Shown here piece by piece: positions 133 to 55,764 of a stretch of 64,000 nt of DNA. A model generated the notes under the pieces. The model saw only the letters and a program-made list of their open reading frames with translations, was not told the origin of the DNA and did not search any database. The number at the start of each line of letters is the position of its first letter. Position 1 is the stretch's first letter. The position numbers and the translations under genes are program-made. Source of the DNA: a phage. The DNA lies in assembly GCA_020241865.1 (NCBI GenBank), contig GCA_020241865.1_4709.1; one strand, written 5' to 3'.

Positions 133-148
133 CGCAACGGTAACATAA

Positions 149-180: not shown

Positions 181-197
181 CTTATGCTGTTATGCTA

Positions 198-572: not shown

Positions 573-581
573 GTGTTACCC

Positions 582-1151: not shown

Positions 1152-1172
1152 GTAGACACCACCTCCAACGTG

Positions 1173-3785
1173 TTAAGCGTCCGGCGTAAAATCAAAAGGA
1201 ATGTCCGTACGAATGATATCATAACGTTTTCCGAGGAAATAAAACTCTTCGGGAACCTGACCGGGAATAATGCTATCACCGATGAACTGCGGATACGCCC
1301 AGATGTACTGAGTGAGTCCTTCGAACATATCCAGGTTATTTGCGTGGTTACCCATGATACGTTTCCAGAGTTCGCGTTTATACGGCGTTTTAACATCGAA
1401 ACCATAAAGCGGTGCAAGATCTTCACCAGGAACAAATCCCAGGTAATAGTGAATCTGACTAACCGGGAAACCAAGCGTATCTCGCGGAATGGTGATCGCT
1501 TGCTCAGCTTTGGTGACATGCGTTTCAATAATCCAGTCGTAACACTCTGAATAGAACCGATCGAATTTCTCTGGATTATACCACGCTTTGGGAAGATTCA
1601 GTTTCTCCGTGAACGCATTCGACATGATCGTCGGTAAGAACGGAAGAACACCGGTTTTGATCTGCGTGTATTTCGATTTTACCCGGTTAGCCAAATTCCA
1701 GCAACTGTATCCTAACTGTTCGTTACAAAACTCAACGTAGAGATCGTAATCACCGCCGGATAATGGGTTGTTGATATCACCAATGTCTGCAGCGTATTTG
1801 TTGGGATATCGGTTATTGAAAGCCAGTTTGGTTTGGTAATCGTAGATACACGGTTTGTTGTTCGCTGTATTGATCCACCACCAGGGTTCACCCACCTGTA
1901 CACAAATGTCCTGGACATGAGGGTAAATAATATCGGCAAACGCGGTTAACACATCCCCTAACCACGCCATCGCCTGTTGGTTACATGGAGACAGCAACCA
2001 GGATGGTGGTGTATATCCGGTTGCTGCGATGTTTCCTTCCCAATCCTGCTGCGCCCACTCGAACGGGCATGCTGTACTCATCAATTCGTAACTTAAACTG
2101 ATGGTGACAGAGAAATGGTGTTTTGCAGCATATGCGGCGAAAGCTTCATGCCACGCGATACAGGGTGGATTTAATACATCCGTGGTGTTCACCAGTAACT
2201 TACCCGCACTTGGCGTCCAGACAGTATCGTAGAAATGCGACATTCCAACATAATGCACTAATTCATCTTGATACCCCGCATAAACCAGGTTCTCAAATAC
2301 GCGCTCCGGCGTGATGTTGTAATGGTCATCATAAGCGGTTATCGCACGAAGTTCGTGTGGTGTACAGTGGTGACGATTAACCGTCATTTCCTGATACACC
2401 CCATCGATAGGAAGAATCTCGAGGGTTAAACCGAGGTCGATTGGCGTTTCCAGATAGGTCGTTTCAGTCGCACCTTCCTTATAATGTCGAGAACTCATGC
2501 TGAACATCAACGATGCTACCGATTCGAGTTCGATAGGCTCGTCAGCATAGAACCCCGCCATTGCGTCATTGAAATCGATCGTTACGATTGCGCTTCTACC
2601 GTCTTCAGAGACATCGGTGGCGTATCGGGTTAATGAGATATACTGACGGCTATCGTCTTTGTGTACGACGGTTAAAACCGGCGGGTTTTCGGTATCTGCA
2701 AAGTTACGCTGATCGCCAGTAAACGTGATCTTCGCTTTAAAGATCAAACCGAATAACGACGTCATGGGATCATACGCAATACAACCGTGATCCAGCGTAT
2801 CCGTTGTCCGCCATTCTATCCCGACCAACCCGTTAGCGGTATGGCATCGCATATACGCATTAAGTACCATGTCTTCACTGACAACCGCGAAGTTCTCTGT
2901 TGACTGACCGTTGATAATCCAATACATCGGTTGCCAGAGGTTACGCGTACCTTTTGCGTAGCGGTAGGTTGGTGCGCCTTTGGGGTTGCCATTATTAAGA
3001 TGGAATACTGCAGTACCTTGATAATGGTCGTTCGTATTAATCGGAACACTGTAAGCGTCACCGAGGTCCGTACGTTCCACCTTCGTGACCGTTGCGTTTT
3101 CAAATAACCCACGCAGCGCGGGTAAACCGATATCTTCAGGCGCGTTTTCTCGACGAATCGCATCCGCGATGCGATGGGCTAAGGCGGGGTAAATAGCTTC
3201 ACCCTGTTGTAGGTTTGCAAGACCTACAAAGCGATCAGGGTCGATACCAGCAATCAATAACTCAACATCACCCTTCGTTCTATCGTCGTTAAGATATTTC
3301 AGTCCGGTAAGGTCAAGATGCTGAATAAGCGACAACAGGTTGTATTTACGGTTTTCAACAGTTAGTACAAGATCGCCTGCCCAAACCAAACTTCCCTCAT
3401 CCGCTGTTACTTTAACAGATTGTCGGCCTGTGGTAGACGTTGTTGTCGTTTTATTTAATTGTCCTTGTAGGAAGTCGGTTGCGAGGTCAAAGGCAATGCC
3501 GTAACGGTCAGCGACCGCTTGCATGATTTCACGTAACTGGGTATCTTCTTCAATGATAATCTTGACAGGTATTCCCAGGAACGCTTTAGCGAGGTCTCGT
3601 TTAACCAACGAGACGAATACGGATTTGTAGTATCGGCTTCCATCTTTCCCTTTAAAAAGAATGGAGGTTGTTTCGGGTGCCGATAGAACACGTGCAAATA
3701 CAACATCGTCGGAAGTAAGAGAAAGTCCGTTTTTCTCGTTGACCAATCCTAGTATTTCATTTTGCGCGGTTTCATGTAACTTCAT
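1173..3785 (-). CDS. tail fibre/tailspike protein with shared N-terminal anchor module
   Basis: 870-aa ORF; N-terminal ~150 aa (VKRDLAKAFLGIPVKII ... YGIAFDLATDFL) paralogous to the N-termini of 9406..9954, 10090..11859, 15493..16323 and 54310..55764; large unrelated C-terminal domain. Confidence 0.7.
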   Translation of the reverse strand: MKLHETAQNEILGLVNEKNGLSLTSDDVVFARVLSAPETTSILFKGKDGSRYYKSVFVSLVKRDLAKAFLGIPVKIIIEEDTQLREIMQAVADRYGIAFDLATDFLQGQLNKTTTTSTTGRQSVKVTADEGSLVWAGDLVLTVENRKYNLLSLIQHLDLTGLKYLNDDRTKGDVELLIAGIDPDRFVGLANLQQGEAIYPALAHRIADAIRRENAPEDIGLPALRGLFENATVTKVERTDLGDAYSVPINTNDHYQGTAVFHLNNGNPKGAPTYRYAKGTRNLWQPMYWIINGQSTENFAVVSEDMVLNAYMRCHTANGLVGIEWRTTDTLDHGCIAYDPMTSLFGLIFKAKITFTGDQRNFADTENPPVLTVVHKDDSRQYISLTRYATDVSEDGRSAIVTIDFNDAMAGFYADEPIELESVASLMFSMSSRHYKEGATETTYLETPIDLGLTLEILPIDGVYQEMTVNRHHCTPHELRAITAYDDHYNITPERVFENLVYAGYQDELVHYVGMSHFYDTVWTPSAGKLLVNTTDVLNPPCIAWHEAFAAYAAKHHFSVTISLSYELMSTACPFEWAQQDWEGNIAATGYTPPSWLLSPCNQQAMAWLGDVLTAFADIIYPHVQDICVQVGEPWWWINTANNKPCIYDYQTKLAFNNRYPNKYAADIGDINNPLSGGDYDLYVEFCNEQLGYSCWNLANRVKSKYTQIKTGVLPFLPTIMSNAFTEKLNLPKAWYNPEKFDRFYSECYDWIIETHVTKAEQAITIPRDTLGFPVSQIHYYLGFVPGEDLAPLYGFDVKTPYKRELWKRIMGNHANNLDMFEGLTQYIWAYPQFIGDSIIPGQVPEEFYFLGKRYDIIRTDIPFDFTPDA

Positions 3786-3807
3786 TAAAAACCTCAGCCC
3801 TTTAGAA

Positions 3808-4449
3808 TTAAATGTACTGCTTACCGCCCACGAAGGAAGTTAACCAGTTCCCGCTGACGAGTTGTGATACCCAGCCTGGAACGGCTCTACCATTCTGGCT
3901 CATGATGTTACCACACCAACCAGGGAATCCGGGACGGATGTAATAGAAAGTTAAATTGTAGAGATGGCAATTCCATACCGCAACGTTATGTTTACCAGAA
4001 ACCGCTTTAAAGACAAACGCGACAGGTAACGGAGACGATAACAATTCGGTCACAGGGACGGCTGACCAGTTCGCATTCGCGTTCCATGGTTGCCAGGTAT
4101 GGCTGCGCGAGTCGCAATATACGTTACCGTTGTTACCGCGCCCACCCGCATTCCACCACAGCGACGGACTCATGTTCTTAAGTGAGGTAAATTGCTGCGG
4201 TGGAATATTAGGAATAATAACAGGGTTGGTACCTTGCCCATGTTTCTTTTCTTTTGCGTTCACATACCCGCTTATCGATTCGAGGTATTTGACACCAGGA
4301 TAATTATTCTGGACTTGTGTCGCAATATCACGAACATCGAACGTCCAGCAGATCATGGTGTTGTAGTAAGCATCGGTGTTGTCGTACCATGCGTTACCAT
4401 CTTGTAAACGTGCGCCACTATTCGGTGTTTTATCTGTGTTTATAGCCAT
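3808..4449 (-). CDS. small protein of the tail-fibre locus, paralog of 4561..5277
   Basis: 213-aa ORF; C-terminal 40 aa (GFPGWCGNIMSQNGRAVPGWVSQLVSGNWLTSFVGGKQYI) nearly identical to the C-terminus of 4561..5277. Confidence 0.55.
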   Translation of the reverse strand: MAINTDKTPNSGARLQDGNAWYDNTDAYYNTMICWTFDVRDIATQVQNNYPGVKYLESISGYVNAKEKKHGQGTNPVIIPNIPPQQFTSLKNMSPSLWWNAGGRGNNGNVYCDSRSHTWQPWNANANWSAVPVTELLSSPLPVAFVFKAVSGKHNVAVWNCHLYNLTFYYIRPGFPGWCGNIMSQNGRAVPGWVSQLVSGNWLTSFVGGKQYI

Positions 4450-4547
4450 AGTGTTGTCCTATACTGCGATGATTGAGATATCGGATGCCGGATGTGTGTT
4501 GCCATCAGGTGGTACGTACAGAAACACCCACAGATAAAACAGTAGCT

Positions 4548-4578
4548 TATCTAACTTCAATTAAATTGAAGTTAGATA
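4548..4578 (-). terminator. 31-bp perfect palindrome (15-bp arms) overlapping the stop codon of 4561..5277; terminator or operator-like site
   Basis: tATCTAACTTCAATT-A-AATTGAAGTTAGATa with every position paired; on the minus strand it is followed by a U-rich tract (CUGUUUUAUCUG). Confidence 0.4.
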
Positions 4579-5277
4579 TTGTTTACCTCCAACAAACGAC
4601 GTTAACCAATTACCTGAAACAAGTTGCGATGCCCAGCCAGGCACTGCCCTACCGTTCTGGCTCATCACGTTACCTGCCCATCCCGGAAAACCAGGTCGGA
4701 AAATATATACTTGAATATGTGTTAAAGCGTTATCATTACCACCGCCAACAGCAACGTTACGACTCCCAGATGACGGGAAATATTCTTTTAAGAACAGAGG
4801 ATCGGTTGCTAATAAAGATGCGGGCCAAGGGTTCGCAGATGCATCAACATCGAATTCGGTCCATCGCCATTTACGTCCCGTGTCGAACCATGTCGATGTA
4901 CCACCACCCCTCACGACAAGATTGCGCGCATCATGGACATTATAAATTGATTCGATGTTACGCCATCCACCTTTTGCAGCGTTTGCTGCATAGCAAACCG
5001 CATTACCACCATTCTTCTTCTCGTAAACGGTTCGTTTGATATGAACACGGTCGATGAACGCTTCACCGTATTTGTTGACGAGCGTTTGTGCGATATCACG
5101 AAGATCGTGCATGTGAAAAGCGATGTCTTCGTTATGGAACCATGTTGTCTGGTTCCAGACGGTACCGTTTGGTTCGGCACACATCGATCGGATATTGTTG
5201 CGTTGATTAATCGCGATAAAACCCATTGTATACCTCGTTCCTATTCTCAAAAAGGAAATTTCATACGATGACGCCAT
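4561..5277 (-). CDS. small protein of the tail-fibre locus, paralog of 3808..4449
   Basis: Track ORF 4561..5313 trimmed to ATG at 5277 (MASSYEISF), because the first 12 codons are the translation of hairpin 5282..5311; the 3' arm of that hairpin (GGAGGAGC) sits 4 nt upstream of this ATG as a Shine-Dalgarno sequence. Confidence 0.55.
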   Translation of the reverse strand: MASSYEISFLRIGTRYTMGFIAINQRNNIRSMCAEPNGTVWNQTTWFHNEDIAFHMHDLRDIAQTLVNKYGEAFIDRVHIKRTVYEKKNGGNAVCYAANAAKGGWRNIESIYNVHDARNLVVRGGGTSTWFDTGRKWRWTEFDVDASANPWPASLLATDPLFLKEYFPSSGSRNVAVGGGNDNALTHIQVYIFRPGFPGWAGNVMSQNGRAVPGWASQLVSGNWLTSFVGGKQYLTSI

Positions 5278-5281
5278 AGCA

Positions 5282-5311
5282 GCTCCTCCTTCCCTTACGG
5301 GTTGGAGGAGC
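5282..5311 (-). terminator. GC-rich hairpin (8-bp stem GCTCCTCC/GGAGGAGC, 14-nt loop) between genes; its purine arm doubles as the ribosome-binding site of 4561..5277
   Basis: Inverted repeat 5282-5289/5304-5311; loop ttcccttacgggtt matches the loops of the hairpins at 149 and 43776. Confidence 0.55.
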
Positions 5312-5319
5312 ATACTTAA

Positions 5320-5826
5320 TTACTTACTGATAACCTCAACGGAGTTGGGATCAGCGATCAATGCACGATCGGTAGAACAGTTGAAGAAGACCATACCAAC
5401 ACCATCACCGTTCGAGTTCAGGGTTGAACTTACATAAGACAGGGTTGGTTTATTCATGCGGTAGAAGCGTTCGCTGGTAGTGGTATTGAACCCCAGATCA
5501 ACGTAGTCTTTCACCGTGGTGTACAACTGTGTGGACTCGAAAACGGTTACCGGAGAGTCAACGGTAAACTGACTGCCTTCATCCACAACCAGAACTTTAT
5601 CGTTCCAGATTTCAGTGGTTGAAAACTTCGGTTTCCAGTGTTCGAATTCCTGGGTTGCGCCCCAGCAAGAATAAACAGCGAGATTGCTGTTCTTCTCAAC
5701 AGGTTTCAACCCCACCAGTTGTGTCAGGTCTTTATCCAGGTTCGGTAAGCCTTCCAGCGTAGCGCACCCACCCAGAGAAAGTACCATCAACATACCAAGA
5801 ACGATCGCGCAGAGTTTTTTCATCAT
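5320..5826 (-). CDS. putative lipoprotein (candidate receptor-blocking or superinfection-exclusion protein)
   Basis: Start placed at tandem ATG ATG (5821..5826) preceded by AAGGAAA; signal peptide MMKKLCAIVLGMLMVLSLGGC with lipobox-like LGGC; sits inside the receptor-binding locus. Confidence 0.6.
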   Translation of the reverse strand: MMKKLCAIVLGMLMVLSLGGCATLEGLPNLDKDLTQLVGLKPVEKNSNLAVYSCWGATQEFEHWKPKFSTTEIWNDKVLVVDEGSQFTVDSPVTVFESTQLYTTVKDYVDLGFNTTTSERFYRMNKPTLSYVSSTLNSNGDGVGMVFFNCSTDRALIADPNSVEVISK

Positions 5827-5874
5827 TAGATTTCCTTGTGTGTTAACGGAAGTGACTTCCATAAGGATTGATGA

Positions 5875-8800
5875 TTACTTTTTGAGCGCTTTAAGTTCTT
5901 CTTCCAACGCTTCCACTTTTGCCGTAAGCTTCTGTACTTGTTTGATTAATGGAACCACCAAACGTTCGTACATGACACCTTCAGCGACGAGTCCGTTAGA
6001 AGAAACGATAGCGGGGTCATCTTCTTCTGTTGCATCACGCCAGTGCACGTACTGCGGTGCGATCTCGCCAACCTCTTCAGCAATCAACCCATACCAACCC
6101 CAATCCTTGTTGTCTGCTTCACATGTAGAACGATACCACACAGGACGCATCTCCAATACTTTATCCGCTTGTTCATCCGTGATATTCTCGATATCTTTCT
6201 TATAGCGACGCGACGACGTTGAACGAAACACATTGTTGATCCCAGAAACAGGACTGATATACATGTTAGCCCCGCTGGTTGTAGTGCTAATGTCCCATAC
6301 CGCAAATCCGCCGTTACTCCCATTTTTTACGATCAATGTGTTGGCAATAATGTCCAGGTTATTGTCGTAACCGGTTAATTGTCTTTCCGTTACATAACTG
6401 GATAGATTGACCGAGTAGTTCTTACTGTTATAACAACGACGCCATCCTGGGCTGTTGGTACTGCCATTATAGTTGTCGTAGCTATAAATGAACTCGGAGT
6501 TGGTTTTCGCACCACTGACGGAAGACGTGGTTGCGGTCGTAACACGGATGGTATAGTTTGTCATCCCGAAGCTAACGACCTCGATAACAGCACCAGCCAG
6601 AGGGATAATACCGCACTTGGTTTCACTGTCTGGGATGTATGCGCTGTCGGCAGCTGCGAAGGAGCAACGTGCGACCCAGGCGCGGGTATTGAATGCACCT
6701 TGGTTTTGCAACAACGTGATAAACGATGAGGTCGTAATCGAGCTGTTATTATCACCGGTGATCAACCAGCCGGTCGGGCATGCGGTTGCGCCAACGTTTT
6801 TCGCTGTTAACGTGATGTTCTGCGATCCGTCGAAGGCTACGCCACTGATAGTACGCGCAGTCTGCAGTTTCGTCGCCGTTGCTGCGTTCCCTGATGTGTT
6901 CTGGTTCCCTGCGGCGTTAACACCCGGCAGATTGATATTCGCACTACCGTCGAAAGACACCCCACCAATGGTGCGGGCGGTTTTCAGTTTTGTCGCCGTG
7001 GCGGCATTACCGGTCGTGTCTTGGTTACCGGTGGTGTTTACCCCAGGTAGGTTGATATTGGCCGTTCCGTTAAATGAAACACCACCAATCGTCCGTGCCG
7101 TTTGCAACTTCGTTGCGGATGCCGCATTCCCCGTGGTGTTTTGGTTACCTGTTGTATTCACACCTGGGATACTATCCTTAGATGTGTAGATCTGTGCCCA
7201 TTCCGACCAGTTCGCATCTGATGCATCACGACGCGAACGTAGGTAAGCTGGAGCGTGTGCGCCTGAAGTACCTGACCATCCAATAAGGATCTCACCTTCA
7301 CCTACTGCGGTTGCTCCTTTAAGATGAACAACGTTACCGTAGGCTGTAGGGTATCCGTTATTGTACGCTTCATACATCTGGATACCCGTATTGCTGCCCT
7401 GGGTCGCATTAGCTAAAGCGGTGACCCGTCCCTTGGAAGCGAGCACGTTAATGCTAAAGCTAATATCGGTTGTACCGTCAAAGGCGACCCCATTAATCCT
7501 CCGCGCTGTTTGGAGTTTCGTGGCAGTAGCCGCATTACCAGAGGTACTCTGATTGCCTGCTTTGTTCACACCTGGTAAATCAATGTTGGCGGTTCCATCA
7601 AAGGACACGCCCCCTATGGTTCTCGCCGTCTGAAGTTTTGTTGCTGAACCAGCGTTTCCGGAAGTGCTTTGATTACCCGCCGCGTTGACACCTGGTAGGT
7701 TAATGCTAGCAGAACCATCAAAAGAAACTCCACCGATCGTAATAGCTGTTCGCAACTTCGTGGCTGTCGCAGCGTTACCCGTCGTATTCTGATTACCAGC
7801 TGCATTGACGCCAGGTAATGCGATATCAGCTGTGCCATCGAACGCGACACCTCCGATTTTACGGGCGGTTTGTAGCTTGGTTGCTGTAGCAGCATTACCG
7901 CTGGTATTTTGCGTACCGGCTTTATTTACACCAGGAAGATCGATGTTAGCAGAACCATCGAAGCTGACGCCACCTATCGTTCTTGCAGTAGCAAGTTTAG
8001 CGGCTGTAGCAGCGACGTTACCGACTTTTAACCATTCTCCCCATGGACCATCCACACCGTTCCATGATGCCGTTAAACTGCGCACGTATATGTTTCCTGT
8101 ACGTACTGTGTAACGTTGTGTTCCACCGAATTGACCGGCTGGGAGCACTTCGATGTAACCTACAGCATTTGCTTCAGGGAAATTGTGGGCAGCATCGGCA
8201 TTCGTTGATGTTTGTTTGGACCAAATACCCACAGACGCTTCAACCGGACCGTAGGTATTCAGGTTTGCATCGGTTGGGAGTTGTCCTCTGAAACGACGGA
8301 ACGACGAGGCGTTAATTCCCAATATCGTTTGCATCCCTTCAACACCGGACTGCTGTAAGAGAGCGCGTGCGGTAGAAGTGATCGTTGCAAGCGCTACTTT
8401 ATCAGCACCTGTGAAATACGGTAATTTATTCGCTGATGTTGTTAGTCCAGAAAGGGCTGTGAGCAAAGCGTTCAGCGGTTGTTTGCCAGCTAAAGCGTTT
8501 GTTACAGTTGTCGCGAAGTTAGGATCGTTACCTAACGCTTGCGCCAATTCATTGAGTGTGTCCAACGCTTCAGGAGACGATCCGACAAGCGCTGCGATAG
8601 CACGCATCACAAATTCGGTATTCGCAATCTGCTGACTTTTATCGCCTTCGGCTGCGGTTGGTGTTGTCGGCTTATCGGTAAATGCCGGGCTAGAAAGATC
8701 CGCTTTAGCGCTAATTTGTGTTGCTAGGACTTTCCCGGCTTTCGCGGATAGTGCGAGTACTTCACTATCACTGTTCGTCGCCGAGGTTAACTGAACTAAC

Positions 8801-9399
8801 CCTTTACGTGTGGTACTAGCGTCCACTGCTGTGTACTTTCCTTTCGCAACATCCATCACAGCTTTAACTGCTTTTGATGTTGCGGCTTTGGTTTCGTCGT
8901 CACTATTTGTTTCGCTGCTAAGGATCGTTAATCCCCGTTTCTCGGTGGTCGCATCTGGTAAGAATGCGTCACTAACAACCTTCAATTCGATCGCATCGGT
9001 ATTGCTTACGACAACAAATACCTGACAATTTAACACACGTCCTGCCCCTTCGGAAGGCAGTGGTTTGTACCCTTCTGGCGCATTGCCGACAACGACAAGT
9101 TCACCCTGATCGTCGTACAGACCGATCTCACGCACCCAGAACCCACCTTGACTGGCGGGAATAATGCCTTCAACAACAATCCGGGTTGTGTCGTCAACAT
9201 CAATGTGGATGTTAGAAACTTCCCCACGATAAACTTCGTGTACGAGCGCTGTTTGGCTAACATCGGGGGTTGGTGTAGAGCCGTTTCCGTCACCAACAGC
9301 AAAATGTGTGATTCTTAGTTTCTCACCGTCAGGAAGTAGCGCTGCGGCAATACGTTCAGCGCCTTTATCGGTAATGACCGTTTTATAAGTTGTACTCAT
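5875..9399 (-). CDS. long tail fibre: P2 gpH/Stf-like N-terminus, Phage_fiber_2 tandem repeats, C-terminal S74-type intramolecular chaperone
   Basis: 1174-aa ORF; N-terminus MSTTYKTVITDKGAERIAAALLPDGEKLRITHFAVGDGNG is collinear with P2 H / lambda Stf N-termini; eight ~40-aa repeats (ATATKLQTARTIGGVSFDGSANI(D/N)LPGVN); C-terminus has the STSSRRYKKDIENI motif and a coiled-coil tail typical of self-cleaving chaperone domains. Confidence 0.85.
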   Translation of the reverse strand: MSTTYKTVITDKGAERIAAALLPDGEKLRITHFAVGDGNGSTPTPDVSQTALVHEVYRGEVSNIHIDVDDTTRIVVEGIIPASQGGFWVREIGLYDDQGELVVVGNAPEGYKPLPSEGAGRVLNCQVFVVVSNTDAIELKVVSDAFLPDATTEKRGLTILSSETNSDDETKAATSKAVKAVMDVAKGKYTAVDASTTRKGLVQLTSATNSDSEVLALSAKAGKVLATQISAKADLSSPAFTDKPTTPTAAEGDKSQQIANTEFVMRAIAALVGSSPEALDTLNELAQALGNDPNFATTVTNALAGKQPLNALLTALSGLTTSANKLPYFTGADKVALATITSTARALLQQSGVEGMQTILGINASSFRRFRGQLPTDANLNTYGPVEASVGIWSKQTSTNADAAHNFPEANAVGYIEVLPAGQFGGTQRYTVRTGNIYVRSLTASWNGVDGPWGEWLKVGNVAATAAKLATARTIGGVSFDGSANIDLPGVNKAGTQNTSGNAATATKLQTARKIGGVAFDGTADIALPGVNAAGNQNTTGNAATATKLRTAITIGGVSFDGSASINLPGVNAAGNQSTSGNAGSATKLQTARTIGGVSFDGTANIDLPGVNKAGNQSTSGNAATATKLQTARRINGVAFDGTTDISFSINVLASKGRVTALANATQGSNTGIQMYEAYNNGYPTAYGNVVHLKGATAVGEGEILIGWSGTSGAHAPAYLRSRRDASDANWSEWAQIYTSKDSIPGVNTTGNQNTTGNAASATKLQTARTIGGVSFNGTANINLPGVNTTGNQDTTGNAATATKLKTARTIGGVSFDGSANINLPGVNAAGNQNTSGNAATATKLQTARTISGVAFDGSQNITLTAKNVGATACPTGWLITGDNNSSITTSSFITLLQNQGAFNTRAWVARCSFAAADSAYIPDSETKCGIIPLAGAVIEVVSFGMTNYTIRVTTATTSSVSGAKTNSEFIYSYDNYNGSTNSPGWRRCYNSKNYSVNLSSYVTERQLTGYDNNLDIIANTLIVKNGSNGGFAVWDISTTTSGANMYISPVSGINNVFRSTSSRRYKKDIENITDEQADKVLEMRPVWYRSTCEADNKDWGWYGLIAEEVGEIAPQYVHWRDATEEDDPAIVSSNGLVAEGVMYERLVVPLIKQVQKLTAKVEALEEELKALKK
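6620..8100 (-). repeat. diverged tandem coding repeats (Phage_fiber_2-type) inside the fibre gene
   Basis: Five plus three ~120-nt units encoding the GNAATATKLQTARTIGGVSFDGS motif; they generate the antisense pseudo-ORFs at 6617..7189 and 7805..8113; boundaries approximate. Confidence 0.7.
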
Positions 9400-9405
9400 G
9401 GCGTT

Positions 9406-9954
9406 TTATCCCGGGTAAATAGTGATGACATCACCGATGACAGTTGCCGCACCGGCGCAAAGATACGCTGGTGATGTATCACGCTGGTTTGTCACGATAA
9501 GATCCAATTGCCCACGCCAAACCATGGAGGTATTCGCGATGGGAATCGAGATCTTCTTGGATGTGTCGTCACGAAAATCAATGACAGTAGCAAGGATAGC
9601 TGAATCAAAATCAGCATCGGTTTCAAAGATGAATCCGTACTGATCTGAAATAGCTTGAATAACCGCTCTTATAGTTGTTGTTTCAACCGACTCCAAAACG
9701 ATTTTCATCGGTATCCCTAGAAACGCTTTCGCGATATCACGTCGTGTGTAAGTGATAAAACTTTCACCACACCACCTTGTTCCTTCATTTGCTGTGACGA
9801 TCACTTTTGCCCTGTTAGCACCAGAACTCCTATCCAGGGTTAAAGTGAGATCGGAGTTGCTGAACACGCTACCGTTACGTTGGTTTATCAACGTAATCAG
9901 TTCGTCTTTCCACGGCAGGTAAAGTGAACGCATAAGCGCACCCTCCTCCAACAA
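9406..9954 (-). CDS. anchor-module-only protein (N-terminal fibre domain with no distal domain)
   Basis: 182-aa ORF; contains the shared module (YTRRDIAKAFLGIPMKIVL ... YGFIFETDADF) and ends 6 nt before the start of fibre gene 5875..9399. Confidence 0.6.
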   Translation of the reverse strand: MLEEGALMRSLYLPWKDELITLINQRNGSVFSNSDLTLTLDRSSGANRAKVIVTANEGTRWCGESFITYTRRDIAKAFLGIPMKIVLESVETTTIRAVIQAISDQYGFIFETDADFDSAILATVIDFRDDTSKKISIPIANTSMVWRGQLDLIVTNQRDTSPAYLCAGAATVIGDVITIYPG

Positions 9955-9973
9955 TCAAATTAAGATGCAAAAC

Positions 9974-10001
9974 GCCTCGAAACCGGAGTGCGATTCGAGG
10001 C
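9974..10001 (-). terminator. rho-independent terminator (8-bp stem, 12-nt loop) downstream of fibre gene 10090..11859
   Basis: GCCTCGAA/TTCGAGGC inverted repeat; on the minus strand it is followed by GUUUUGCAUCUUAAUUU. Confidence 0.6.
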
Positions 10002-10046
10002 AAACGTAAACAGTCTTAACGACCGCATAAAATTCCGCGCATATTA

Positions 10047-10058
10047 CCCCCCCCCCCC
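10047..10058. repeat. C12 homopolymer (G12 on the minus strand) in an intergenic hairpin context
   Basis: 12 consecutive C, followed by TCGCTTCGTCGAGGTAGGGGAGG, which can pair with the C tract; 32 nt downstream of the stop of 10090..11859. Confidence 0.9.
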
Positions 10059-10089
10059 TCGCTTCGTCGAGGTAGGGGAGGATAACACT

Positions 10090-11859
10090 TTATGCCGCTA
10101 CATACCCAGGCCAACGTTCTCTTGGCCAGTTTGTTGCGCCCTGTCCAACGTTGTCCTTACCAGAAGTTACATTACTTACGTCCCAACCACTAAGATCCTG
10201 GTTAAATGCGGTGTTGTTGCGCATCATGAGGTCGATCCTACGTAACGATTGGGTATTCCAGCCGGAAATGTCTTGGTTGAATGCCGCGTTGTAAGCAAAC
10301 ATGTTAACAACGTCTTGTAATTTTGAAGTGTTCCAGCCGCTTATATCGCTATTGAACCGCATGTTCGAGAACATACTGCTAGCGTTGACAAGACTACCTG
10401 TTTTCCAGTTAACCAGCTTGTCCCCATCAAGTGCATAGCAGCTACTGAACATGTAACTCATGTCGTTAACTTTGGATACATCCCATTTATCTAACCCGTT
10501 ACCAACGAACTTGCGACAATCTTGGAACATCGAGCTCATATCGGTAACCTGGCTCACATTCCATTTGCTAAAGTCGAGGTTGAGGTTTGTGCATCCGGAG
10601 AAGGTTTGATACATACTGGTGATACGACTAACATCCCATTCTTGAATGTTAGGATCATTAAGTATAGATAAGAATTTGAACAATTCGTCTAACGACGTCC
10701 ATTTCTCTGGGATACGGTTTGGTACGGTACGGAGTGATAAAAGGTAACTGGTTGACGGAGAGCGGAACATACCGTTATCCCAATTTACGATTTCTGTAAT
10801 GTTGGACCCACGGATCGTTTGGCGTCCGTTACCATTATACACAGACCCTGTTGCAGTTATTGTATATTCGTTTGTATCAGCATACGTATATTCAGCCTGT
10901 GTAGGCCACTCACCTATTACATCCCTATTCCCATCGCCCCAATCAATGGAAATATCTATCCAACCATCAAGATCTAGGGTAACGGTCCCGCCATTGGTCT
11001 TCAGGACGTATTTACCTGCATTGTCGGTATAATAACAAACAATCATCGCACCGTACAGGTTACCAATTTGCCAATCATCCTTTTGAGTTACCGCGATATG
11101 TGCTGTGCCACGTTGTAGGAAAAGAACCGTACGGTTCTCGTCAGTCTGTAATGTGGTTAATGCTTGAGCCTTATCATCGTCGGTAATTTCACCAGCTTCC
11201 ACTAAAGCACTTAACATTCTTTCGAAGTATTCGATGGGTAATTGGCGTCCTACAGACATATCAACTGATGGAACAGCGAGATCATCCAATGCGGCGGCAG
11301 TTGCAAGCACTAATGATCCATTGGTGGTGTCTGTTTCTTGGAGGTAATGCAGTCCCGTAATCTGGTACGCTTGAATGATTGTAATCAGATCCAGCGTATC
11401 GTTAATGACCTGTACTTGTAAATGTCCAGACCAAACATAGCTGCTTTCAGCAATCGGTAATTCGACCGACTGAATACCCGATGTTTCAAAACTGATCTTC
11501 TTATTAAGATCGGCTTCCAGGAAATCAACCGCGAGGTCGAAATTTATACCGTACTTTTCAGCGATGGAATCTATGATGTTCCTGAAAGCAACATCGGTAC
11601 TTACGATGAATCGTAAAGGGATTCCTGTGAACGCATTAGCAATATCTCGACGAACATACGTAAGTGATTGTTCGAAGAAATAGGGACTGTTATCTCCAGG
11701 TTTGATGGTTACCTGACACATTTCAGGATGTTCAGCTGGGATGAACGATTCAAATTTAACATCGGATTCCTTCAACGAAAGCATGTTCTTCCGGTTTACC
11801 AGCGCCAGAAGATCGGCTTTCCATCCAGGATAAACAGTAGACATAAGCACTCCAATCAT
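10090..11859 (-). CDS. tail fibre with shared N-terminal anchor module and C-terminal DUF285 (BspA-like) repeats
   Basis: 589-aa ORF; N-terminus YVRRDIANAFTGIPLRFIV ... YGINFDLAVDFL; C-terminal repeats such as WNVSQVTDMSSMF, WDVSKVNDMSYMF and FNQDISGWNT match the DUF285 repeat pattern. Confidence 0.75.
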   Translation of the reverse strand: MIGVLMSTVYPGWKADLLALVNRKNMLSLKESDVKFESFIPAEHPEMCQVTIKPGDNSPYFFEQSLTYVRRDIANAFTGIPLRFIVSTDVAFRNIIDSIAEKYGINFDLAVDFLEADLNKKISFETSGIQSVELPIAESSYVWSGHLQVQVINDTLDLITIIQAYQITGLHYLQETDTTNGSLVLATAAALDDLAVPSVDMSVGRQLPIEYFERMLSALVEAGEITDDDKAQALTTLQTDENRTVLFLQRGTAHIAVTQKDDWQIGNLYGAMIVCYYTDNAGKYVLKTNGGTVTLDLDGWIDISIDWGDGNRDVIGEWPTQAEYTYADTNEYTITATGSVYNGNGRQTIRGSNITEIVNWDNGMFRSPSTSYLLSLRTVPNRIPEKWTSLDELFKFLSILNDPNIQEWDVSRITSMYQTFSGCTNLNLDFSKWNVSQVTDMSSMFQDCRKFVGNGLDKWDVSKVNDMSYMFSSCYALDGDKLVNWKTGSLVNASSMFSNMRFNSDISGWNTSKLQDVVNMFAYNAAFNQDISGWNTQSLRRIDLMMRNNTAFNQDLSGWDVSNVTSGKDNVGQGATNWPRERWPGYVAA

Positions 11860-11882
11860 GGGGCGGTAACCGCCCCCATCAG

Positions 11883-14800
11883 TTAAATTGTCGGTTTCAC
11901 GTCGCGTAATAGGGCAATATAATAGCCTAATCCTCGGAGGATCTCCCCACTCCAGAAACCAAAATACATTCCGTCTCTGCCGAGATTAGCACTATCTGGT
12001 GCAGGACTCCACCCACCATTCATTGCGTCATCAACGGTGTAGCGGTTGATGTAGTTTTCAACGATTTCATTATAAACGTTAACGGCAACAGGATAGCCTT
12101 TATCGTTGGGATGCCCATACAACATCGCTAACGACGCACCCGCTAACCATAATCCTGCCATATGACCAGTAAAGTCATTAGGGATAAAAGCAGGGGGTTT
12201 ATCCATCGGAAAATCCGTAGGAGATTGATAAGCGTTTTCCTGTTGATACGTAAACAAGAAATCGATCCAATGGCTGATGTAAGTGGTTAACTTCTCAGGG
12301 ACAGCCAAACCACGATCAAGCAGTCCGGCATAAAGCCTCACCACTGAAAAGAAAGCCCTCGGCTGATAACCAGGCCATGCTGTCTGATCGCCGAAGTGGT
12401 ACATCGTAAAATCATTAACTTTCGATCCGCTTGGCGCATCCCAACGATCCCACACGTACGCACTTGCTCCTGGCCCTAAAACCCCGAATTTCTGATAATA
12501 CCACTGCTGCGAGTCATACCAGAAATTCACAACATTCTGAATCATGAGGTCACGTCGTTCAGCCGATACGTCCATATCCAGGAAGACCCATGGATGTTGG
12601 TAGCCGGGATAAGGCTGACCACGCCAGCTGTCGAACGTCGGTGCGTTAGGGATATAGTTGTTCGAGAACGGAATAATACCCGGAGTATAAGGCAATGGAT
12701 CCAGACGTTGGTTGACAATCGTACAATCGCCAACACGCAATGTGCCCTCTGCCTCAAAGATTGCTTTTAACGTAAACAGCATGGTATATCCGTCATCCGT
12801 GGTGTAAGTTGACGGTGGATTGTTGATGGCGTAAAGCTTAAATACCCCTTCAGCGATATCGCTGTCATCAGGCAAGAACAGAATTTCAGTTGAACCGTCG
12901 CCCCACACAGGTGCGGAAGGTTTAGGGTCAGTATCAGCATGGCCAGGTTGATACCCTGAGAGCCTCCATCCGTTCGCCGAAAGCGTCAATGTATTTCTTG
13001 CTGTGGTGGCCGGTAGCATATACCACCATCGCCAACCATTTGCATCTTCTACACGAACGTTGTAGTCAATCGACGCGAAATAACTGACCTGCCTTACGAT
13101 CTGTTTTGCGGTTGGATTGAATTCAAATTGTCCGCCTGCCGCAGTAAGCTGCGCTTTTAGGAACAACCCATCCCAGGAATCTTCCACTGCTTCGCTGAAT
13201 TCTGTTGTGATTGCGATATCGTCTTTCCAGCCGACTTTATCAGCCGACATCAACACCGAACCTGTAACAGCATCACCGGTTGGTATTGAAGCTTCATCAA
13301 CCGCATCAGCGGGAATCAACGAGCCTATTTTGAAATCCCATCCTTTCGGTTCAACGCTGGAAGGTAATACCAGCTTGTACGTTTTGGCTTTCGCTTCGGT
13401 TTTGTCCAAAGAAAGCGATAATGAGATCTCAACCGGAATTGCAACGCCTGTCGTATCTTTACCGCCGCAGGTTACCCGAAGAATTGAATCACGATTGACG
13501 CGGAACGGAATGGCCTGCTGTTCAAGGTAAATTTGTGCTGAAGATGCTTGAATCACGATCCAACCATCGGTATCACGCGTGATTGTGAACGGCGCTTTCG
13601 ACGGGTATGTATACGTGTAAGCGATACCGTCGGTGTCGTAACGATCGGTTCCTTTTACTTGACGGAAGAACTTATCGTTAGCGTCAATACGGGTATATTC
13701 TTCAATCGTAAACAAAGACGCCTTGTACGCTTTCTGATAACGCTCCTGCTGCGTTAAACGGTATAAGGTGTAGGCTGCTTCACAAAACCACTGTTCAGCG
13801 TCTGACGCGTTTCCCATGTAGTCTCTGGTGACCGGCACCTGGATCGGTCGGTTATGCTGACACTCGTTCGTTTTGATAAGGTATCCGCCATATTCAACAG
13901 GAACACGCGGTGCCCATGCAACCAAGTAAGAACCGCTGACGGATTTATTTTTGAGTACGATAGTACCTACTTCATCGTCAGTACACGCTTCAAGATCGTC
14001 CCCGTCAGCACTTACGTAACGTTTTGTGCGTAACGCAACTTTCTCGATAGGGAACACCGTACCCTTTGTATCCCAGTCAATCGTCCCATCATCATTGGTT
14101 TTGAACACATCCGCGTTCAAATTCTGCCAGCCGAGTTTACCTTCATAGACCTGAACAACAAGATCCATGTATTCCCCGAACGTTGGTGCCCCATGTGTTA
14201 TTTTCCCGATACCGTTGGTGAATGTAACCGCTGTGTCATGGAAACCGCCATGTGTTGGGTAATCGTCTTTTGCAAGAGGATAATGGGCCAACACAGGTTG
14301 TTTACCATTAACAATCCAGTTAGCGATCCAGCGTGCCGGTGTATCCGGTGGTTCAAGGCCTGCATAGAACGCTTTTATATACGCATCGAACGATGCCTCT
14401 GCTAATGTGAGATAGTGCGCTTTAAGCTTGGTATCATCCGTTGTATGACTGAATATACCCGCACCCAGAATTAACAACGACTGTCCTTCTGTTGTTGCGT
14501 CACCATCCGGTTGTGCTTCTTGTCGTGTTGCTGCAATGAAATGACGGTTGTTTACCATGACCCCGCTTTCATTTAACACGTAATGATCGGTTTCTGGGTC
14601 GGTAAACGTTCCTGTGTTTCGGGTTAAGAATCTTGCATGGCCATAACCAACGAAATTAACCGGCGACGCTGTAATCATCCATTTACCGATAAGTTGAGCA
14701 ACATCATTATAACGCTCGGATGCGGTGATTTGTTTCACGTACCAGTCTTTATGGTTAAATGTCCAAAGCAGGAAGTAATAAGTTGTATCGATTTCCATCA

Positions 14801-15479
14801 CTGGGAACGTCGGCGTTAACGGCTCCAGCGTTAAGTAGTTGCTCCAGTCAATCTGTCCGCCAACCACCGATGGGGTAATCTCTAATAACTGACACCATTC
14901 ATAACGGTCCGGTACACTACTGGACGTTGTTGGTAAAGGTAACTTGTATACGCCAGTACGATTCAGATCGAACGCTTTTCTAGCCGATCCTAAATCAACA
15001 TAAATACTCGATGATGCGCTTGCACTATATGCCCCCAAAGCACCTAGCGTTGACCGATACATTGAGATGAACAACGTATCTTTCCAGTAAGGGTTATCCT
15101 TGGTTGGTTCTAAAGCGATTTGTGCGGAGATGCTGTTCCATGTCCCTAACTGGTATGTCGCATTTAAAGATTCTTCTGTGAAATAACTTTCTGCAATCGT
15201 CAGATGGAACTGCTCGTTCAATAACGCGAGTGCGGCGCGGCCAGTAACATCCTCGTTACCGGTTTCTTTTTTCACGATCGCGCCGAACGGAAACAGTGTC
15301 GCGAATGACCGTTTTGGTTTATTAACCGTAACCGTCCCTGTGTAATTTCCAACACCGTCGAGTTTTTGACTATCGCCAACAGCAGTGACTGCGATACCAT
15401 CAACCGGGATATCTGTTTTATTTAGTATATTGAGTTGGTCAACCAGATCCTGCTTATCGTCAGGTAAGAATGTCGCCAT
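11883..15479 (-). CDS. large tail/baseplate-associated structural protein (possible tailspike)
   Basis: 1198-aa ORF inside the fibre locus; the N-terminal ~80 aa resemble the shared anchor module only weakly; no catalytic motif recognised. Confidence 0.55.
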   Translation of the reverse strand: MATFLPDDKQDLVDQLNILNKTDIPVDGIAVTAVGDSQKLDGVGNYTGTVTVNKPKRSFATLFPFGAIVKKETGNEDVTGRAALALLNEQFHLTIAESYFTEESLNATYQLGTWNSISAQIALEPTKDNPYWKDTLFISMYRSTLGALGAYSASASSSIYVDLGSARKAFDLNRTGVYKLPLPTTSSSVPDRYEWCQLLEITPSVVGGQIDWSNYLTLEPLTPTFPVMEIDTTYYFLLWTFNHKDWYVKQITASERYNDVAQLIGKWMITASPVNFVGYGHARFLTRNTGTFTDPETDHYVLNESGVMVNNRHFIAATRQEAQPDGDATTEGQSLLILGAGIFSHTTDDTKLKAHYLTLAEASFDAYIKAFYAGLEPPDTPARWIANWIVNGKQPVLAHYPLAKDDYPTHGGFHDTAVTFTNGIGKITHGAPTFGEYMDLVVQVYEGKLGWQNLNADVFKTNDDGTIDWDTKGTVFPIEKVALRTKRYVSADGDDLEACTDDEVGTIVLKNKSVSGSYLVAWAPRVPVEYGGYLIKTNECQHNRPIQVPVTRDYMGNASDAEQWFCEAAYTLYRLTQQERYQKAYKASLFTIEEYTRIDANDKFFRQVKGTDRYDTDGIAYTYTYPSKAPFTITRDTDGWIVIQASSAQIYLEQQAIPFRVNRDSILRVTCGGKDTTGVAIPVEISLSLSLDKTEAKAKTYKLVLPSSVEPKGWDFKIGSLIPADAVDEASIPTGDAVTGSVLMSADKVGWKDDIAITTEFSEAVEDSWDGLFLKAQLTAAGGQFEFNPTAKQIVRQVSYFASIDYNVRVEDANGWRWWYMLPATTARNTLTLSANGWRLSGYQPGHADTDPKPSAPVWGDGSTEILFLPDDSDIAEGVFKLYAINNPPSTYTTDDGYTMLFTLKAIFEAEGTLRVGDCTIVNQRLDPLPYTPGIIPFSNNYIPNAPTFDSWRGQPYPGYQHPWVFLDMDVSAERRDLMIQNVVNFWYDSQQWYYQKFGVLGPGASAYVWDRWDAPSGSKVNDFTMYHFGDQTAWPGYQPRAFFSVVRLYAGLLDRGLAVPEKLTTYISHWIDFLFTYQQENAYQSPTDFPMDKPPAFIPNDFTGHMAGLWLAGASLAMLYGHPNDKGYPVAVNVYNEIVENYINRYTVDDAMNGGWSPAPDSANLGRDGMYFGFWSGEILRGLGYYIALLRDVKPTI

Positions 15480-15492
15480 TATTTACTCCACC

Positions 15493-16323
15493 TTAATCGT
15501 AACTAAAATAAAGTTTGCTGCTGACGCCGCTATCGGAATGAGGTTTTAATACCAGAACAGAGCTTCCGAACGACGGAAGTATTGGAACATCTAAATCGTT
15601 CGCATCGGCAACTTTTCCATTATAAACGACATTGGCTGTTGTGATGAGTTCCCAGGCTAAGGTATAACTCATTGAAATCAGCGACGAGGCTAAACGGAAC
15701 GCATTGTATCCTTCTGGAGTATCTCCAACCGACATCGAACGTATCGCATCTTGCGGCGGTAAATTTAGCTTGATGCCGTATGTACTGAATGTGTGGAAAT
15801 CCCCTTGTTTACTATCTTCTGGATAATACGAGGTTAGCGGTTCTCGTACCGTAAACAGTTCGCTAATATCGGTACTTACCGCTTTTCGTGCGAGGAATTG
15901 AAACGTACCGTACCACGATGCCGATGCATCAGAATGAACGGGAACAGATATGGTTTTCTCGCCGCTTTCGAATTTAACCTGTGACGCTAACGCTGAAGAA
16001 TCAAAGATCGTTAAATCGATCTTCAACCCATACTTCTTAAACAGCTGCGTTAAGCAGTCTGCTATCGTCGTCATATCAGCAACGACAATAAAAGGTTGGT
16101 GTTTGATAAAGAGCTTATTAATGTCTCGACGTTGAAGATAAACCTGTACGGAGTCTTCGATATAGTAAGTCGATTGTGGTGTGGGGACTATAGAAAGGCG
16201 TAACCGACCCGATGCACCATACCAGGCTGGCGTTAACATAATGTCTGACAGGGATAATGGATGCTGGAGATAGGTGTTTATTTTAGATAACACTTCCTCC
16301 TGCCATGATGCTTCAGGATACAT
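15493..16323 (-). CDS. tail fibre-like protein with divergent copy of the shared N-terminal anchor module
   Basis: 276-aa ORF; YLQRRDINKLF ... YGLKIDLTIFD matches the module pattern (W-x-EE-L, RRDI, YG-x-x-D) of the other fibre genes. Confidence 0.55.
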   Translation of the reverse strand: MYPEASWQEEVLSKINTYLQHPLSLSDIMLTPAWYGASGRLRLSIVPTPQSTYYIEDSVQVYLQRRDINKLFIKHQPFIVVADMTTIADCLTQLFKKYGLKIDLTIFDSSALASQVKFESGEKTISVPVHSDASASWYGTFQFLARKAVSTDISELFTVREPLTSYYPEDSKQGDFHTFSTYGIKLNLPPQDAIRSMSVGDTPEGYNAFRLASSLISMSYTLAWELITTANVVYNGKVADANDLDVPILPSFGSSVLVLKPHSDSGVSSKLYFSYD

Positions 16324-16382
16324 GCTGACCTCATAGATGATCGTTGATAGGAAAGAAACCTAATTCATACCATGGGAACCTC

Positions 16383-16439
16383 AAAAAAAAAACGAAAAAA
16401 TAGGAAAACGGTGTTCATCCTTTTTAGGGATGAACACCG
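16383..16439 (-). terminator. strong rho-independent terminator closing the fibre-locus transcription unit
   Basis: 12-bp perfect stem (16409-16420/16428-16439, loop tttttag) followed on the minus strand by a U tract (A10 at 16383-16392 on plus). Confidence 0.8.
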
Positions 16440-16459
16440 CGTACCGTTATATCGAACGA

Positions 16460-54309: not shown

Positions 54310-55764
54310 ATGAAACTTAAACAAAGCTGGAAAGACGAACTTCTCGCGTTAGTAAACAGCAAAAACAGTTTACAACTGACATTAGACGATGTAAAATTTG
54401 AACTAACGGCACCGGTAAGCGAAGTGCCTGGAACGGTCGTTGTTACAATCAAACCGAACGATAATAGTCGCTACTTTAACGAGCAGTCTCTGACCTACAT
54501 CCGTCGAGACATCGCTAAAAACTTCACTGGGATCCCGTTACGGGTCATCGTTAAAAAAGATACCGCTGTAAGGGATATCATCAATACGATTGCTGAACGT
54601 TACGGATTGGTATTTGACACAGCCGTCGACTTCCTCGAATCCGAGCTGAATAAACAAATTACGTTCGCAGACACCGGTATTAAAGACATTACGGTTCCGG
54701 TTGCAAACACGTCTTATGTTTGGGCGGGTAATCTTCAGTTCAATATTGCTAACGATACGTTAAGCTTGATTACTATCATCAAGAAAACCGATCTTACGAA
54801 TCTGGTTTATCTGGATGGTGTTGAAGCTGACACATCTGGTTCGTTACTATTAGCAACCGCAGCACTTGTTAACGAACACGTAAATGAACCGATGGTTGAA
54901 AACGAAGATATCGTTAATGAATTTATTAACGTTCTTAATACTCTAGCCAAATATGGTGACATAACCGGCGATGAATTAGATGCCGCCTTACAAGCGTACG
55001 ATGAAGCAGAAAACAGGAATAAAACCACGGTAATAACTCTTGGTGATATCCAGTGTGTTGCAACAGAAAAAGACGATTGGGAAATTGGACGTTTACGCGG
55101 TCAGATGGTTCTCGCGCTCAAATCCGATAAATACCCGGAGCCCGATAACACGTTCAGGTTGTTTACGAATGGTGGTGACGTATCGCTAACGTTAAACACA
55201 ATGAAAGATATAAGTATCGATTGGGGTGATGGGAATAAAGTAACGTTGGATGCTGAAGAAAGATACGCGCACCACACATACGCCGACAATAACCAGTACC
55301 AAATCGAAATTGTGTCTCGTACGGACCCAGATGTGCTGCGACCAAATTATATTTCTGGGAGTGAGATAACCGAAGTAATTCACTGGGCTACTACTTCAAC
55401 AATAGCTCTGAATTTTGTTGGATGCGATAATTTAGCGACTGTTCCAGATGAGATCCCAACTTCGTGGACAACGTTGGACAGCATGTTTGAAAGTTGTACG
55501 AATTTGAATGATCCGTCTATCTCTAACTGGAATACAAGTAACATCACATCAATGAATGGTATGTTCGGCGGATGCACTAAATTTAACCAACCTTTAGCTG
55601 CCTGGGATGTCAGCTCAGTAACTGACATTGGTGGTATGTTTAACGGATGCAACAGTTTTAACCAAGATTTAAGTGGGTGGCGATTACCGTCAGGAGTAAC
55701 CCACGACAATTACGATAGTGGTGCTTTCTCGTGGCAGACGGAACATAAACCGACGTTCCAGTAA
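54310..55764 (+). CDS. tail fibre with shared N-terminal anchor module and C-terminal DUF285 (BspA-like) repeats, displaced from the main fibre locus
   Basis: 484-aa ORF; N-terminus SWKDELLALVNSKNSLQLT ... YIRRDIAKNFTGIPLRVIV ... YGLVFDTAVDFL; C-terminus FESCTNLNDPSISNWNTSNITSMNGMF, WDVSSVTDIGGMFNGCNSFNQDLSGW. Confidence 0.75.
   Translation: MKLKQSWKDELLALVNSKNSLQLTLDDVKFELTAPVSEVPGTVVVTIKPNDNSRYFNEQSLTYIRRDIAKNFTGIPLRVIVKKDTAVRDIINTIAERYGLVFDTAVDFLESELNKQITFADTGIKDITVPVANTSYVWAGNLQFNIANDTLSLITIIKKTDLTNLVYLDGVEADTSGSLLLATAALVNEHVNEPMVENEDIVNEFINVLNTLAKYGDITGDELDAALQAYDEAENRNKTTVITLGDIQCVATEKDDWEIGRLRGQMVLALKSDKYPEPDNTFRLFTNGGDVSLTLNTMKDISIDWGDGNKVTLDAEERYAHHTYADNNQYQIEIVSRTDPDVLRPNYISGSEITEVIHWATTSTIALNFVGCDNLATVPDEIPTSWTTLDSMFESCTNLNDPSISNWNTSNITSMNGMFGGCTKFNQPLAAWDVSSVTDIGGMFNGCNSFNQDLSGWRLPSGVTHDNYDSGAFSWQTEHKPTFQ

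Follow-up and report, generated by a model that had tools for sequence, protein, structure and literature searches.

Introduction

Escherichia phage Goslar, a 237-kb nucleus-forming chimallivirus, encodes ten DUF7941 proteins, including gp86, gp91, gp92, gp93, and gp161, which were listed by Basu et al. in April 2026 (bioRxiv 10.64898/2026.04.21.720040). Goslar DUF7941 proteins were detected by virion mass spectrometry, and fused carbohydrate-binding, glycoside-hydrolase, and leucine-rich repeat (LRR) domains were reported among them (10.64898/2026.04.21.720040). Purified Goslar gp22 forms filaments that are hundreds of nanometers long, as seen by negative-stain electron microscopy, and in an AlphaFold 3 prediction each protomer uses its linker (and its C-terminal domain) to dock on the N-terminal domain of the following protomer (10.64898/2026.04.21.720040). 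In the same study, a gp126-gp127 dimer was fitted into the baseplate density of phage phiKZ, and the authors proposed that a "DUF7941 fiber cloud" is tethered to the peripheral baseplate (10.64898/2026.04.21.720040). In phiKZ, gp127 belongs to the outer peripheral baseplate and lies at the end of the band of gp139 dimers (PMC13250141). Here, we analyze a DUF7941 locus in a stretch of phage DNA of 64,000 nucleotides (NCBI GenBank assembly GCA_020241865.1, contig GCA_020241865.1_4709.1), which we refer to as the window; the locus occupies positions 1,173 to 16,323, and one further family member lies apart from it.

The DNA at positions 1-16400 of the window is 93.7% identical to that of Goslar over 74% of its length, most window proteins share 95 to 99% identity with their Goslar counterparts, and the genes follow the same order. 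By these measures, the source is a Goslar-like chimallivirus, that is, a nucleus-forming jumbo phage of Escherichia coli. The Goslar DUF7941 proteins are direct orthologs of those in the window, encoded in the same order, with 85 to 99% identity (61% overall for gp161) and the same domain layouts, and the domain assignments of the Goslar preprint (carbohydrate-binding, glycoside hydrolase, and LRR) agree with the models made here. The window phage differs from Goslar in an extra DUF7941-DUF285 gene (g10090), a different gp161 cassette, a different tail fiber tip, and an extra gp87 paralog.

Results

DUF7941 paralogs in the window

An earlier note on this DNA had proposed that five genes begin with one N-terminal module, which is joined to unrelated distal parts. 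Every open reading frame (ORF) named in that note was found in its place and is complete, and both formal alignment and hidden Markov model (HMM) searches bear out the shared module far beyond chance. The N-terminal module, about 165 amino acids (aa) long in these five ORFs (g1173, g9406, g10090, g15493, and g54310), is Pfam DUF7941 (PF25613), which scored 40 to 152 bits against a gathering cutoff of 27. BLASTP comparisons between the N termini gave E values from 1e-118 (g10090 and g54310) to 4e-7, with the weakest pair, g1173 and g15493, at E = 0.011. When an HMM of the five modules was run against the 477 six-frame ORFs of at least 50 aa, the same five were recovered and no others (E = 1e-63 to 1e-79; next best, E = 0.037). 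The alignment of the five contains 12 invariant columns, including RD, YG, F, and W..G positions. Because the modules are only 21 to 42% identical to each other within the window phage, they are old duplicates rather than one module recently copied, and the part that was recently exchanged is the distal cassette.

The 1,198-aa protein g11883 (11883..15479, minus strand), the ortholog of Goslar gp92 (97.7% identical), had been kept apart from the module family. This separation did not survive: g11883 is a divergent sixth member whose module lies below Pfam detection. A wider module profile, made from 140 modules (135 from databases and the five from the window), matches g11883 at aa 5-141 with E = 1.4e-7, and hhalign gives a probability of 96%. 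The same profile matches two full-length homologs of g11883, P0309 and P0310, at E = 4e-15 and 6e-10, and two other proteins, P0312 and P0313, have a Pfam-recognized DUF7941 ahead of a g11883-type body. The order of secondary-structure elements agrees between the two AlphaFold 2 (AF2) models of the module, from g10090 and g11883. Taken at the level of sequence, the six window genes (g1173, g9406, g10090, g11883, g15493, and g54310) are paralogs of one chimallivirus-specific DUF7941 family.

The members differ in how much of the family architecture they retain. A profile of the linker and C-terminal domain matches g15493 at aa 152-275 (E = 4e-18), g1173 at aa 148-276 (E = 4e-14), and phiKZ gp127 at aa 172-290; only its first half is matched in g10090 and g54310, and it has no match in g9406 or g11883. 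The "short domain" that had been ascribed to g15493 (15493..16323, minus strand; 276 aa; Goslar gp93 ortholog, 95% identical) is therefore not foreign but the linker and C-terminal domain of DUF7941, the same part that g1173 carries at aa 148-276. This makes g15493 a full-length DUF7941 protein to which no domain is added, with the layout of phiKZ gp127. By contrast, g9406 (9406..9954, minus strand; Goslar gp91 ortholog, 85% identical) is confined to the DUF7941 N-terminal domain plus a short tail and has no foreign domain. The likely true start of g9406 is the ATG at 9933 (175 aa), and that of g10090 is at 11844 (584 aa); a GGAG ribosome-binding site is present at both, and all orthologs have these lengths.

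An exhaustive representative search with the module yielded 316 clusters at 50% identity (E ≤ 0.001), and among the 150 cluster representatives listed, nearly all have the module starting at residues 1-20. DUF7941 proteins fall into three length classes, of about 160-195 aa, about 270-325 aa, and 340-1537 aa. By tblastn, the module was found only in jumbo phages of 210-307 kb, with "virion structural protein" as a frequent annotation, and the matches from a word-indexed homolog search, seeded with the module alignment, were limited to close gp91- and gp93-like proteins. Separately, six proteins (P0095, P0102, P0134, P0142, P0171, and P0180) each contain two to four copies of the DUF7941 module; these may be fused gene calls, and covalent tandem modules would fit a head-to-tail filament. 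P0088 and P0123, which gave many short profile matches and contain a Spiralin or LRR_5 domain but no Pfam DUF7941 match, were set aside as probably spurious.

Distal domains of the DUF7941 proteins

Four of the DUF7941 proteins carry distal domains: an N4-sheath-type TIM barrel (g1173), an (alpha/alpha)6 body (g11883), and two LRR solenoids (g10090 and g54310). The "large unknown domain" that the earlier note had assigned to g1173 (1173..3785, minus strand; 870 aa; ortholog of Goslar gp86, 98.7% identical) proved to have clear matches. The complete DUF7941 architecture, from the N-terminal domain through the linker to the C-terminal domain, spans aa 2-277 and is followed by NCTSP_N (PF23844, E = 1.3e-10) at aa 285-450 and a TIM barrel of the N4 gp64/gp65 type (Pfam TIM-barrel_NCTSP, PF23845, E = 3.9e-85) at aa 476-837. 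Within it, aa 528-789 match N4 gp64 (9lc0_M) at E = 2.4e-30 and aa 483-543 match gp65 at E = 5e-7. The receptor-binding protein of N4 is gp65 (PMC13434306). The TIM-barrel domain is thus common to g1173 and the N4 noncontractile sheath proteins gp64/gp65 (PDB codes 9lc0 and 9yf4); in N4, however, it lies in a sheath around a short tail tube, whereas g1173 has it fused after DUF7941, in a jumbo phage with a contractile tail. What the two share is the domain alone, and a sheath role around a short noncontractile tail is unlikely for g1173.

In g11883, the divergent DUF7941 N-terminal domain (aa 5-141) precedes a tail-protein body of about 920 aa. The modeled body contains an (alpha/alpha)6 barrel of the glycoside hydrolase type (GH8, GH105, GH88, and GH76), with an identity of only 8 to 12% to solved enzymes. 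Over its full length, the body is 28 to 42% identical to lateral tail fiber or tail proteins from rV5-like and phi92-like phages (Vequintavirinae), from Rosemountvirus, and from some podoviruses, and many of the 535 phage records with such a body are annotated as tail fiber or tail protein. Lateral tail fiber proteins of the rV5/phi92 type belong to branched multifiber adsorption organs. They share the g11883 body but lack DUF7941 and have other N-terminal attachment parts.

DUF285 was confirmed by Pfam in both g10090 and g54310, as the earlier note had claimed (E = 7e-47). NCBIfam contributed the PARCEL repeat and nothing else. In g10090 (10090..11859, minus strand), the DUF7941 N-terminal domain is followed by a helical region (aa 178-238), a beta-sandwich (aa 239-354), and a DUF285/PARCEL LRR solenoid (aa 355-584). 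The distal part is modeled as an LRR solenoid that resembles BACOVA_04585 and internalins; Foldseek of the g10090 model returned no solved structure at E ≤ 0.001. Bacterial surface proteins of the DUF285/PARCEL/BspA-type LRR class have the same repeats and LRR fold, but in the window the repeats lie behind DUF7941 on phage proteins of predicted virion location. The second such protein, g54310 (54310..55764, plus strand; 484 aa), has a DUF7941 N-terminal domain and then a DUF285 LRR; it is the positional ortholog of Goslar gp161 (61% identical overall) and comes after a DEAD-box helicase gene, just as gp161 comes after gp160.

The same pattern extends across the family. The C termini of 59 long DUF7941 members fall into about 19 unrelated groups, and Pfam recognized DUF285 in 11 of them; LRR_5 and a beta-propeller were each found in 2, and single members have the N4-type TIM barrel or a T-even Gp38 adhesin domain (the latter in P0134). 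These comparisons support the view that the distal domains are host-surface binding or degrading domains. The claim of at least six distinct receptor-binding proteins is, however, too high, because g9406 and g15493 are without a binding domain; what remains is four DUF7941-borne candidates and the tail fiber.

Exchange of distal cassettes and loss of g10090 from Goslar

Comparison of g54310 with Goslar gp161 revealed a sharp boundary. The two proteins are 95 to 100% identical over aa 1-160 and 28 to 57% identical from about aa 170, which amounts to 96% in the module and 40% beyond it. At the DNA level, the swapped distal cassette inside g54310 (54858..55731, plus strand) has no blastn similarity to Goslar, while its flanks are 96% and 92.5% identical, which places the breakpoint at about codon 183, just past the module. 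Among gp161 orthologs, the module is 90 to 96% identical, while distally there are at least three classes of alleles. Likewise, in 51 orthologs of g10090 the module is conserved at 91 to 96%, whereas the beta-sandwich region at aa 276-350 is conserved at only 50 to 73%. In P0312 and P0313, a gp92-type body begins right behind the module, at aa 161-166, and such a body also occurs in hundreds of other phages that have no module in front of it. Together, these comparisons show that the junction between module and distal part is a real recombination boundary in nature, in keeping with the proposal of one conserved module joined to unrelated distal domains.

The gene g10090, whose product is 46% identical to that of its paralog g54310, accounts for a clean presence/absence difference of 1745 bp between the window and Goslar. 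The corresponding scar in Goslar (L001 13100-13304; window 9955-10089 and 11860-11882) contains the ribosome-binding site TTGGAGTG followed by TAGTAGCATAA, and the latter resembles the last codons (~11 bases) of g10090. Since Goslar keeps the first bases of the gene (the ribosome-binding site) and its last ~11 bases, the comparison indicates that Goslar lost g10090 by a near-precise deletion. Orthologs of 584 aa form about 50 clusters on Goslar-like contigs, and an identical g10090 protein is encoded by a 239-kb contig from an NCBI assembly as well as by five more contigs. This fits the origin of Goslar-like genomes, 59 of 60 of which come from assemblies of bacterial isolates (bioRxiv 10.1101/2024.12.31.630880).

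Two observations on g10090 stand apart from this comparison. The terminator stem downstream of the gene contains a run of about 12-13 G. In addition, in the Logan contig L010 (ERR11019281, 1-3150) the beginning of gp93 is fused to a C-terminal portion of gp92 and this to the DUF285 end of g10090, across two deletions with 10- and 18-nucleotide (nt) overlaps, and gp91 is followed directly by a Tfa gene with no fiber gene between. The contig represents either a defective phage variant or an assembly artifact and was not used as evidence.

Relation to phiKZ baseplate proteins

Against phiKZ, the wider module profile found gp127 (E = 1e-19), gp126 (E = 1e-14), and gp143 (E = 1e-11), with scores of 34 to 60 bits. 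By these profile matches, the DUF7941 module is homologous to gp127, which is a chain of PDB entry 9xqd. The three phiKZ proteins have N-terminal domains homologous to those of the window family, and for gp127 the similarity to g15493 and g1173 extends through the linker and C-terminal domain; the phiKZ members carry no fused binding or enzyme domains, and sequence identity is low. The narrow five-sequence profile gave nothing significant among PDB sequences (best E = 0.32), so the link to gp127 came only from the wider profile. The top Foldseek match of the g10090 model was also gp127, though a weak one (E = 0.015; root mean square deviation = 11.5 Å), with the module poorly modeled.

The phiKZ proteins gp131-gp135 resemble the DUF7941 family in design, being paralogs at the peripheral baseplate that have a common N-terminal attachment domain and differ distally. 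However, these proteins (variable C terminus, hetero-hexameric fiber base) are not homologous to the DUF7941 family. Membership of the gp131 family was rejected, as the module profile matched gp131-135 at E = 0.001-0.8 and no more than 8 bits (best, gp132, E = 0.001).

The tail fiber and its small neighbors

The prediction of a P2-H-like fiber at 5875..9399 was upheld. The product of this gene, g5875 (minus strand; 1,174 aa), is a tail fiber of the P2 H/P1 S type and the ortholog of Goslar gp90, with a tail-collar fiber N terminus, fiber repeats, and a C-terminal Peptidase_S74 intramolecular chaperone. Relative to gp90, its N-terminal third is 77 to 87% identical with divergent stretches, its central repeats (aa ~420-840) are 87 to 100% identical, and its tip is replaced from about aa 850 (window positions of about 5875-6850). 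Goslar gp90 has a P1-S-like tip and a separate Tfa chaperone, gp89, in place of the Peptidase_S74 end of g5875. In genome-wide screens of Goslar on E. coli, genes for the lipopolysaccharide (LPS) core were the only host factors (bioRxiv 10.64898/2026.04.02.716166). Because the tip is replaced, the receptor of g5875 may differ from the LPS core used by Goslar.

Three small genes, g5320, g4561, and g3808 (3808..5862, minus strand), lie between g5875 and g1173. The first, g5320 (5320-5862, minus strand), directly downstream of the tail fiber gene, is the ortholog of Goslar gp88 (98% identical) and has a lipoprotein-type signal peptide and a lipobox (MKKLCAIVLGMLMVLSLGG followed by C). Mass spectrometry found ~737 copies of gp88 per Goslar virion preparation (bioRxiv 10.64898/2026.04.21.720040). 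Three identities are conceivable for this protein: a receptor-blocking lipoprotein similar to T5 Llp, a genuine part of the virion, or contamination from membrane vesicles. The second, g4561 (4561-5313, minus strand), is an extra paralog, 38% identical, of the gp87 ortholog g3808 (3808-4449, minus strand) and lies in a stretch of ~720 bp that is absent from Goslar and from the 239-kb contig L003. Both g4561 and g3808 end in a common conserved C terminus, RPGFPGW.GN.MSQNGRAVPGW.SQLVSGNWLTSFVGGKQY, and neither has a Pfam or PHROG match.

Discussion

The observation in the earlier note is confirmed by this analysis, and its interpretation is partly supported. We favor, at a probability of roughly 60%, a reading in which the DUF7941 proteins of the window are minor subunits of baseplate-anchored filaments that capture the host via their distal domains before the fiber g5875 binds its receptor. 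The window proteins would join, cap, or start such filaments, which would be built mainly from homologs of gp22 and gp23 encoded outside the window. Glycan-cleaving and adhesin domains would be presented in this way for a first, reversible capture of the host, and the P2-H/P1-S-type fiber g5875 would then bind the essential receptor, which in the case of Goslar is the LPS core. Exchange of the distal cassette behind a constant module would change specificity and leave assembly undisturbed. The module had been described as a simple anchor, which fits its baseplate homolog gp127; the Goslar work (gp22 filaments and AlphaFold docking), however, points to head-to-tail polymerization into peripheral-baseplate filaments, so that the module probably does more than anchor each protein on its own.

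Several points weigh against this reading. Goslar gp22, which is encoded outside the window, is the only family member shown to form filaments, and the Goslar baseplate map resolved no DUF7941 density (10.64898/2026.04.21.720040). The AF2 model of the g10090 module is poor (predicted local distance difference test [pLDDT] of 33 to 66), and this makes the comparison of module folds weak. Because the Goslar screens found only LPS-core genes, the DUF7941 proteins may be dispensable in the laboratory. The virion evidence is also uneven. Copies per Goslar virion (Table S4) are ~111 for gp161, ~43 for the fiber gp90, ~4.9 for gp92, ~4.8 for gp93, ~4.5 for gp86, and ~1.2 for gp91, next to ~580 for gp22 and ~2140 for gp23; the same table contains thymidylate synthase (~20) and a DEAD-box helicase (~10) (10.64898/2026.04.21.720040). 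As their copies are at or below those of these two contaminants, gp86, gp91, gp92, and gp93 are not securely virion-associated. The refuting outcome named in the earlier note, that only one of these proteins is in virions, was not seen, since multiple Goslar orthologs were detected, but only gp161 is clearly above contaminants.

These copy numbers also bear on whether polymerization is needed at all. In the main rival reading, each DUF7941 N-terminal domain would instead dock alone on a fixed site of the peripheral baseplate, giving branched short fibers of one kind per paralog. Such an arrangement would accommodate phiKZ gp127, which occupies one defined site per star lobe, and Goslar gp86, gp92, and gp93, whose 3-8 copies per virion are compatible with six, one per baseplate sector; a module identity of 21 to 42% is likewise as expected if each module fits a different docking site. 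We nevertheless consider it unlikely, since gp22, gp23, and gp161 far exceed the number of baseplate sites, purified gp22 makes filaments hundreds of nanometers long, and both the head-to-tail contacts predicted by AlphaFold and the fit of the gp126-gp127 dimer to phiKZ density speak for contacts between protomers. It is more improbable that the low-copy members have no part in adsorption and are baseplate assembly or structural parts, or enzymes for release or matrix degradation, with the P2-H-type fiber alone setting host range. The restriction of Goslar host factors to LPS-core genes, which suits a P1-S-like fiber, the contaminant-level signal of gp86, gp91, gp92, and gp93, and the lack of a binding domain in g9406 and g15493 are all compatible with this view; yet the distal bodies are homologous to tail fiber or receptor-binding proteins (the N4 sheath and rV5/phi92-type lateral fibers), and a conserved N terminus with exchanged or hypervariable distal parts is a mosaic pattern typical of host-range determinants.

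The earlier note had also raised a "switchable" host range, in which the paralogs would be mutually exclusive alternatives chosen by a DNA switch (as with Mu Gin or P1 Cin) or by a diversity-generating retroelement. The Goslar fiber tip is P1-S-like, and P1 uses an invertible segment. Nothing in the window indicates a switch, however: all of the genes are complete ORFs, several paralogs were found together in one Goslar virion preparation, and no inverted repeats of at least 20 nt are present in positions 1-17000, so a DNA switch is not supported and we regard this explanation as extremely improbable. Within the filament-borne capture that we favor, a narrower proposal, namely, that the two DUF285 LRR adhesins (g10090 and g54310, the second with an ortholog at ~100 copies per virion) sit on long polymeric DUF7941 filaments and that host range evolves via cassette swap at a fixed breakpoint, is tentative and, on balance, doubtful. 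If true, it would give DUF285/PARCEL repeats their first functional role as phage adhesins and would represent a polyvalent, filament-borne form of host capture that is distinct from classical trimeric fibers.

No new category is opened by this locus, since the 2026 work on Goslar had already reported the family, its virion association, and a mechanism. The additions made here are minor: a DUF285 paralog lost by Goslar, together with swapped cassettes, a replaced fiber tip, and a gp87 paralog. Chimalliviruses are studied as models and are candidate phages for therapy, but the way in which they find their hosts is poorly understood. The locus provides natural variation in a recently proposed DUF7941 host-recognition system, with a gene deleted in Goslar and a cassette replaced exactly behind the module. 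Its proteins have bodies in common with N4 and with rV5/phi92-type fibers, and such differences offer handles on the role of DUF7941 proteins in host range. Finally, the natural swaps suggest that distal domains could be exchanged by design.

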